From Escherichia coli (GTDB lineage Bacteria > Pseudomonadota > Gammaproteobacteria > Enterobacterales > Enterobacteriaceae), in NCBI RefSeq assembly GCF_003334255.1, contig NZ_QOWU01000124.1: DNA of 3,240 nt, one strand, 5' to 3'. The notes below the pieces were generated by a model that did no database searches, was not told the DNA's origin, and saw nothing but the letters and a program-made list of their open reading frames with translations. This document shows positions 1,423 through 1,715 of this stretch, piece by piece. Both the position numbers and the translations under genes were made by a program. The first letter of the stretch is position 1. The number at the start of each line of letters is the position of its first letter.

Positions 1423-1621
1423 GGTCTCTTCTCTTGAATTAGCACGTATAGCTAAAGCGTAGCGGCTTTTTTGCTCGCAACTGACGGGAGTTACTCTGAA
1501 AATGTAGAAAAGGCTGCGTTTGCCTTTTTCTGTTTCTATAGAATCAAGTAGCCTACAGGGCGGCGATTACCAGGCTATGATCAAATCAGCAAATCAGGGC
1601 GTCTGGACATCAGTTGACGTG

Positions 1622-1630
1622 CTGTTACAA
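1622..1630 (+). promoter_or_regulatory. Candidate extended -10 promoter element (TGtTACAAT) for mlaA
   Basis: TG at 1622-1623, one base, then TACAAT at 1625-1630 (5/6 to TATAAT). It lies about 85 nt upstream of the mlaA ATG; no good -35 at 17-bp spacing, consistent with an extended -10 promoter. Not verified. Confidence 0.3.
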
Positions 1631-1715
1631 TCGCCCACACCTAAACAGGCGGATACGGTATCGTTCCGTCATGGATGGCAAACTGCATAAGCCATAAAAA
1701 AACAGGGAGACATTT

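Follow-up and report, generated by a model that had tools for sequence, protein, structure and literature searches.

MlaA maintains an outer membrane whose outer leaflet is free of phospholipids. As vesiculation, retention of the capsule, and the tolerance of cells to chlorhexidine and colistin are influenced by this protein, it is useful to know how its expression is set. Stacked multiple promoters are common in Escherichia coli, and those of the tandem σ70/extended -10 class carry the motif TGnTATAAT. Repressors of the LacI/GalR, DeoR, and Fur types use palindromic operators, and a dyad that overlaps the -10 hexamer is in a typical repressor position; the direct repeats of OmpR/PhoB-type regulators are spaced 10-11 bp, about one helical turn. 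At the level of the transcript, ArcZ represses mlaA of Klebsiella pneumoniae by pairing at the translation initiation region, as demonstrated with compensatory mutations (PMC11322559), and premature 3' ends within 5'-UTRs have been described in E. coli (Adams et al., 2021).

The spacer between yfdC and mlaA in E. coli shares several traits with the tandem σ70/extended -10 class placed before a housekeeping envelope gene. Promoter P1 presents the TG, near-consensus hexamers, the 16-bp spacing, and a transcription start site (TSS) 8 nt downstream, and two starts located further upstream (P2 and P3) each have a TAnnnT hexamer of their own; in contrast with that class, P2 and P3 are devoid of a recognisable -35. 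The likeness to LacI/GalR, DeoR, and Fur-type operators consists of a perfect 10-bp dyad over a -10 hexamer, but this dyad is short, expected by chance, and confined to part of Escherichia; one of its halves is conserved, which is the -10 itself, and it matched no known consensus. Two identical direct repeat units beside a -35 hexamer recall the sites of the OmpR/PhoB family, whereas the period is here 8 bp rather than 10-11 bp, which places successive units on different helix faces, the second unit is unconserved outside E. coli, and the first one holds a transcription start. With the premature 3' ends of Adams et al. (2021) the locus shares an end that precedes the mlaA AUG by 44 nt, right after a stable conserved hairpin that, unlike a canonical intrinsic terminator, has no U-tract. 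Finally, the Shine-Dalgarno sequence CAGGGAGA of E. coli is the same translation-initiation region that ArcZ controls in K. pneumoniae; the pairing in E. coli is a predicted one, and it concerns the leader, not the dyad or the repeat. We describe here an ordinary, already-mapped promoter region with no new regulatory switch: probably it is a common mlaA promoter and leader region with three stacked promoters, in which the palindrome and the tandem repeat that a previous sequence-only reading had pointed out as operator-like are not operators.

Materials and Methods

The window, that is, the whole stretch of 3,240 nucleotides analyzed (assembly GCF_003334255.1, contig NZ_QOWU01000124.1), is E. 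coli chromosome and contains yfdC (minus strand), mlaA (plus strand), and then the 3' end of yfdF (minus strand). All positions are those of the window; they are obtained by subtracting the U00096.2 coordinate from 2464745, or the U00096.3 coordinate from 2466723. A scan for MlaA in representative genomes provided 80 loci from Escherichia, Salmonella, Citrobacter, Kluyvera, Enterobacter, Klebsiella, Kosakonia, and others. Conservation was obtained from alignments of 25 and 79 sequences, and hexamers were counted over 78 other Enterobacteriaceae sequences. The spacer was compared by eye with the consensus sequences of known transcription-factor and sigma-factor sites. The sequences themselves, the three TSSs, and the conservation of motifs and leader hairpin are shown, whereas promoter strengths, the roles of A-rich upstream blocks, and the assignment of a promoter to yfdC are inferred.

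Results and Discussion

The coding sequence of yfdC (490-1422, minus strand), for an inner-membrane protein of the formate/nitrite-transporter family, and that of mlaA or vacJ (1716-2471, plus strand), for an outer-membrane lipoprotein of the Mla phospholipid transport system, were established from the open reading frame list and the RefSeq annotation of near-identical or identical DNA, in agreement with the names previously given to both genes. The spacer between them (1423-1715) measured 293 bp, the length formerly reported for it; the start formerly given to the region, 1443, falls within it by 20 bp. The spacer and that of K-12 MG1655 are 100% identical, so that the TSS maps of K-12 are applicable, and a match to it was present in 5426 of the 5426 complete E. 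coli genomes searched. The divergent yfdC-mlaA order, with a spacer of 260-325 bp, was found in most of the 80 MlaA loci, which supports the description of the interval as a divergent control region. In the 25- and 79-sequence alignments the conserved blocks were GCTGTTACAAT and T(A/G)GACATC of P1, the -10 CCAGGCTATG(A/C)T of P2, and TAnnnT at 1539-1544 of P3, along with the mlaA leader, the Shine-Dalgarno sequence, and a box beside yfdC. No tRNA-scan match and no Rfam match at E ≤ 1 were obtained in the spacer; the covariance models of Rfam 15 gave two sub-threshold chance matches only, both outside it.

The σ70 consensus scan, carried out on both strands from 1300 to 1850, returned a single site with 10/12 matches, TGGACA (1604-1609), 16 bp, and TACAAT (1626-1631), preceded by a TG extension. 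This is P1 (1604-1639, plus strand), indicated by the scan, a mapped TSS, and conservation. Its -35 and -10 each agree with the consensus at 5/6 positions; the -35 reads TAGACA in most genera, and GCTGTTACAAT is nearly invariant across genera. The TSS at A1639 (2463106(-), 11 reads, 5'UTR of 77 nt; Kim et al., 2012, PMC3415461, supplementary file 2) falls 8 nt 3' of the TACAAT hexamer. The extended -10 TGtTACAAT that had been proposed for mlaA is thus correct, being consistent with the published start maps as well as conserved, and the sequence (TGTTACAAT) was found at 1623-1631 instead of 1622-1630.

P2 (1576-1588, plus strand) comprises the -10 TATGAT (1576-1581), a poor -35, and a start at A1588 that leaves a 128-nt leader (2463157(-), 19 reads, 5'UTR of 128 nt; Kim et al., 2012, PMC3415461, supplementary file 2), 7 nt 3' of TATGAT. 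Its -10 reads TATGCT in many genera and belongs to the conserved block CCAGGCTATGMTSA. P3 (1539-1551, plus strand) has the -10 TAGAAT (1539-1544), a start at G1551, 7 nt 3' of this hexamer, and a 165-nt leader. We had predicted a start at 1551 (±2) from the conserved TAGAAT ahead of finding the entry 2463194(-), in U00096.2 coordinates, which corresponds to window position 1551 (S2 table, PMC12052159). Coordinates of the spacer are absent from the Cappable-seq supplements. The starts of P2 and P3 come from high-throughput maps, with few reads (19 for P2) and, for P3, from a compendium of 28,107 TSSs that includes weak and pervasive ones. The P3 hexamer appears as TAGAAT, TAAAAT, TAACAT, TAAGAT, or TAGACT, so that variation is confined to positions 3-5 and positions 1, 2, and 6 stay constant, which is the pattern of a -10. 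Over the 78 sequences TAnnnT was kept in 69 for P1, 75 for P2, and 66 for P3, against 18 at most for any other plus-strand TAnnnT of the spacer. The best -35 candidate was CCTACA (3/6) for P2, with none for P3, both below the scan thresholds.

An insertion of around 19 bp separates the elements of P2 from those of P1 in Enterobacter species, which indicates that the two promoters are independent modules and not a single phased operator array. Upstream of P3, an A-rich block conserved in the alignment and the conservation profile (CTGAAAnnGCAAAAATGG in most genera; 1496-1513, plus strand; -55 to -38 of P3) is a possible UP-like element of this promoter. The CCAGGC directly 5' of TATGAT is more conserved than the flank of a -10 requires, and given this a protein site may overlap P2. 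All these features taken together, the interval would be an ordinary mlaA promoter and leader region, with three σ70-type promoters stacked in the mlaA direction.

The palindrome TTCTATAGAA was located by string search at 1534-1543; it exists as claimed, displaced with respect to the 1533-1542 first assigned to it, and its right half forms part of the -10 hexamer of P3. A perfect palindrome of at least 10 bp arose in 26% of 5000 dinucleotide-preserving shuffles of the spacer (P = 0.26), and it is consequently not beyond chance. The exact palindrome was present in 4/79 orthologous sequences. Identity in its left half was 0.2-0.5 and the right half was conserved as TAnnnT only; E. albertii and strain E69 already have a broken left half. 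The palindrome would then be a chance symmetry in Escherichia, arising from the bases that immediately precede the P3 -10 hexamer. Next to it, the scan and the alignment revealed a terminator-like hairpin (GAAAAGGCTGCGTTTGCCTTTTT, 1507-1529) with a G+C stem that is specific to Escherichia; a predicted marbox, ACAGAAAAAGGCAAA, the reverse complement of 1519-1533, overlaps this hairpin (S2 table, PMC12052159). In the literature searched we found no ChIP or footprint data on the spacer.

The tandem repeat, two copies of CAAATCAG (CAAATCAGCAAATCAG), was likewise confirmed by direct string search, at 1582-1597 on the plus strand and not at 1581-1596, where it spans -7 to +10 of P2 and -57 to -42 of P1. 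Perfect tandems with a unit of at least 8 bp were obtained in 0.4% of 5000 dinucleotide-preserving shuffles (P = 0.004), which makes it locally unusual; by our own estimate (~4^-8 per position over ~0.5 Mb of intergenic E. coli DNA) some ten such repeats are expected per genome. The exact tandem was found in 2/79 orthologous sequences and its second copy is E. coli-specific: the second CAAATCAG unit was poorly conserved in the alignment (identity 0.1-0.4), other Escherichia and close relatives carry CAAATCAGTAAAACAG, CAAATTAGCAAAACAA, or CAAGTCAGCAAACCAG at the repeat, and Salmonella has unrelated sequence at the second unit. The P2 start A1588 sits within the first copy. The repeat would thus represent the initial transcribed sequence of P2 together with -57 to -42 of P1, which in E. 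coli sensu stricto became a perfect 8+8 by drift.

If palindrome and/or repeat were operators of a hitherto undescribed transcription factor for mlaA and/or yfdC, as the term operator-like had implied, one could cite the local rarity of the tandem, the promoter-proximal position of both motifs where repressors act (the P3 -10 and the P2 +1), the near fixation of two repeat copies across the 5426 E. coli genomes, and a response of mlaA expression, which is reduced in a fur deletion and several other conditions according to a review that names no direct operator (PMC11131202). Against this, the palindrome is at chance level, both exact forms are broken even inside the genus Escherichia, the 8-bp period that sets the two units on different helix faces misfits response-regulator sites, and promoter elements fully account for the conserved bases. 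Comparison by eye with consensus sequences gave no convincing match for Fur, CRP, FNR, DeoR, or RcsB. The sequence-only reading had itself named lack of conservation in orthologous regions as what would speak against it and, since neither motif is conserved across Enterobacteriaceae, palindrome and repeat would not be operators; an operator role is very unlikely. A symmetric promoter at the palindrome, with overlapping -10s on both strands firing toward mlaA and yfdC, appears less plausible still, to the point of being highly improbable: divergent genes do flank it, both of its strands have a -10-like sequence and E. coli has many promoters of this type (PMC12825309 and related work), but the bottom-strand hexamers, TATAGA and TAGAAA, do not end in the critical T, conservation of TAnnnT on the minus strand was not seen there, yfdC and mlaA are absent from the bidirectional-promoter study's supplements that were searched, and Kim et al. 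(2012; PMC3415461) list no yfdC TSS. As to the former designation as a bidirectional promoter region, no start in the yfdC direction was found in the TSS data searched, and activity toward yfdC would be putative.

For the repeat, its two CAAAT A-tracts might make a weak UP-like contact with the α C-terminal domain of RNA polymerase at P1, or tune promoter escape at P2, the perfect repeat then being a lineage-specific adjustment of strength and not a regulator site. It fills exactly the UP-element window of P1 (-57 to -42 from the mapped TSS), and the region is A-rich in many relatives (for instance CAAATCAGTAAGAC and CAAATCAACAAC); in contrast, it matches poorly the UP consensus nnAAAWWTWTTTTnnnAAAnnn, P1 is intact in Salmonella and Enterobacter although the sequence at this place is unrelated there or holds an insertion, and P1 already possesses a near-consensus -35 and an extended -10. 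Such a role has little support and we consider it improbable, less so than an operator. That the 8-bp tandem is a slippage-prone contingency locus, whose copy number would switch mlaA expression, is effectively refuted by the population data, with no one-copy genome and a single three-copy genome among 5426; the latter, strain NN5 (NZ_CP126348.1), with three perfect copies, indicates that slippage can occur, but two 8-mer copies are far fewer than in known phase-variable loci, and the chance of this explanation is negligible. The ordinary region with three stacked mlaA promoters is by far the preferred reading, and our current understanding of the locus is unchanged by these results. The symmetric and repeated sequences would be by-products of promoter elements, and mutating them or hunting for a regulator there is unwarranted; work is better directed at the layout of three promoters, at the conserved hairpin of the leader and the 3' end behind it, at the Shine-Dalgarno sequence complementary to ArcZ, and at the yfdC-side box.

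On the yfdC side, the most conserved non-coding element was a near-invariant 16-bp box, AAGCGTAGCGGCTTTT (1455-1470, minus strand), whose positions 1455-1465 each showed 80-90% or more identity in the 78 species sequences. The yfdC strand holds here TACGCT (1461 to 1456), kept in 71/78 sequences and the only well-conserved TAnnnT near yfdC. The distance from the box to the yfdC start codon is roughly constant, about 30 nt, and E. albertii, which has a deletion of yfdC, carries a degraded box. On sequence grounds, it is a candidate core of a weak yfdC promoter, with a predicted TSS at about 1449 and a leader of about 27 nt, or else an operator; the interval would probably also hold a weak promoter of the divergent gene. 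In the table of Kim et al. (2012; PMC3415461), the rows for mlaA and yfdG have no yfdC TSS between them. As explanations of the box, a leader peptide or an in-frame yfdC start further upstream were considered and discarded, the open reading frame having no earlier start codon. In a study of the RcsB regulon yfdC was induced 2-fold (PMC2731931), and a paper on "promoter islands" refers to the yfdF/mlaA side and not to the yfdC-mlaA spacer.

Other motif candidates in the spacer were compared in the same way, by eye, and those for IHF, Cra, RcsAB, OxyR, and σ54 were also unconvincing. For CRP only a half-site was seen, at -61.5 of P1; for σE there is TCAAA at 1581-1585 without GGAACTT; and for σ28, GCCGCTAC compared with GCCGATAA is not accompanied by a conserved -35. 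A marbox-like sequence, GCACGTATAGCTAAA (1441-1455), has one mismatch to gcannwwntgnnaaa, a pattern that occurs ~17,700 times per genome, and its GCAC part is unconserved beyond close relatives.

In the mlaA leader, a hairpin with stem 1648-1657/1662-1670 and loop GUAU, followed by an RNA 3' end at U1672 (1648-1672, plus strand), was identified by folding, pair counting, and Term-seq. The hairpin (1648-1670) corresponds to +10 to +32 of the P1 transcript and has a ΔG of -11.2 kcal/mol (z -3.2). When sequences were folded one by one, a hairpin at the same place was found in the great majority of 56 distinct leaders (mean z -1.9), with differing stems, such as CGGAUACG/CGUUCCG, ACGGAGCG/CGCUCCGU, GGCGAGGCG/CGCCUCGCC, and GCGCAAA/UUUGCGC. 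Pair counting gave 72.8% of cells paired vs. 26-44% in slid controls, and 7 pairs were changed on both sides. RNAalifold returned no structure on the 72-sequence leader alignment, probably owing to ~10 non-homologous rows and to indel columns. The 3' end (2465051(-); Adams et al., 2021, PMC7815308, supplementary files 1 and 3) is 2 nt past the stem; the sequence 3' of the hairpin, UCAUGGAUGG, contains no U-tract, the terminator scan made no call, and the Rho table of the same study has no entry with coordinates beginning 24650-24652. A second stem, AUGGC/GCCAU with a variable loop (1675-1695, plus strand), had 92% of cells paired and no pair changed on both sides, and is thus conserved mainly at the sequence level. 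The first hairpin and its 3' end could reflect premature termination under regulation, or a stable small RNA derived from the leader, by which MlaA output is tuned. As a joint proposition, a termination or small-RNA site at this hairpin plus a yfdC-side box acting as operator or promoter of some further regulator of yfdC appears rather unlikely.

The Shine-Dalgarno region (1703-1712, plus strand) comprises CAGGGAGA at 1703-1710, invariant in 72/72 sequences, and ACA at 1710-1712. CAGGGAGA is complementary to the ArcZ seed UUUCCCUG in a predicted duplex, whose energy with the leader was not better than with shuffled leaders (P about 0.23-0.38); as this energy is not significant, what speaks for ArcZ pairing in E. 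coli is its location and the experiments in Klebsiella. The regulation for which there is evidence at this locus would be post-transcriptional, through the conserved leader, namely its hairpin, behind which an RNA 3' end is mapped, and the Shine-Dalgarno sequence that pairs with ArcZ. MazF has been reported to cut 6 nt before the AUG (PMC5001579), and the ACA at 1710-1712 fits this position. Finally, in a chlorhexidine-selected strain IS1 had inserted 39 bp before the ATG, an insertion that was selected together with mlaA loss-of-function phenotypes; its site lies downstream of all three mlaA starts.

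Conserved sequences and candidate promoters on the yfdC side

Upstream of yfdC, about 30 nt from its start, a box AAGCGTAGCGGCTTTT (1455-1470) was found near-invariant throughout the genera retaining this gene; in the E. albertii locus the box was degraded and yfdC was mostly deleted. This box may represent the -10 of yfdC (TACGCT) or an operator. As an alternative, yfdC could be transcribed from a candidate promoter located far upstream, whose start is predicted at about 1565; it would use the minus-strand hexamer TAGCCT (1572-1577), which overlaps the -10 block of P2, the mlaA-direction promoter starting at 1588, and was retained in 62 of the 78 orthologous sequences. 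This hexamer might also account for CCAGGC being more conserved than the flank of a -10 requires.

Two marbox-like sequences were also found. The first one, GCACGTATAGCTAAA (1441-1455), departed by a single mismatch from gcannwwntgnnaaa. MarA activates mlaFEDCB, and a link of this regulator to mlaA would therefore be coherent, although marbox matches arise very often by chance. The other sequence, ACAGAAAAAGGCAAA (reverse complement of 1519-1533), corresponds to a marbox predicted at -25 of the 1551 transcription start (PMC12052159).

The mlaA leader

A hairpin of conserved structure occupied window positions 1648-1670 in the leader, +10 to +32 of the transcript from P1 (start at 1639). The hairpin was not followed by a U-tract, and published Term-seq data place an RNA 3' end just past it, at 1672 (PMC7815308), so that the resulting leader RNAs would be 34, 85 or 122 nt long. 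Further downstream, the mlaA Shine-Dalgarno sequence CAGGGAGA (1703-1710) was invariant in all 72 sequences compared and is complementary to the seed of ArcZ, for which repression of mlaA has been published in Klebsiella (PMC11322559). In E. coli E69, which belongs to a divergent Escherichia lineage, the leader presented a 10-bp tandem duplication, GCCATAAAAA, aligned at about 1686-1700, and its spacer was thus lengthened to 303 bp.

Variation of the divergent spacer and the region downstream of mlaA

The yfdC-mlaA spacer also varied among other relatives. Enterobacter and Lelliottia loci (L032, L056, and L059, among others) displayed an insertion of about 19 bp downstream of the P2 -10 block and upstream of the P1 -35, carrying an inverted repeat, e.g., CACGGTGGTTACTGCCCGTAATTGTG. 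In three other orthologous loci (L025, L072, and L080) the spacer reached 410-500 bp vs. around 300 bp in other species, and therefore an inserted element is implied. With regard to the tandem repeat at 1582-1597, three copies of CAAATCAG instead of two were found in a single one of the 5426 complete E. coli genomes, that of NN5 (NZ_CP126348.1, 1428936-1429074).

At the other end of mlaA, the AT-rich convergent spacer with yfdF (2472-2652) appears in the list of "promoter islands" of PMC3661553. Within this spacer, directly 3' of the mlaA stop codon, AAAAAAGGTGAGTCGCAAAACTCACCTTTTTT (about 2481-2512) forms a strong hairpin resembling a terminator.

The argW remnant and the prophage end

At the left edge of the window (1-414), argW (tRNA-Arg) was represented beside yfdC by its first 24 nt only, running from 414 down to 391 on the minus strand, and no tRNA was detected by ARAGORN. 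From 390 leftward, the sequence corresponded to the end of a lambdoid prophage of the Stx-converting type, being 100% identical with that of Escherichia phage GER2. Identity was 99% with many Stx2a phages, and in the records of the latter the corresponding site is labelled "duplication due to insertion". The junction (391-414) was common to 209 of the 5426 E. coli genomes, and in these the ORF ending at 268 was annotated as an LPD38 domain protein.
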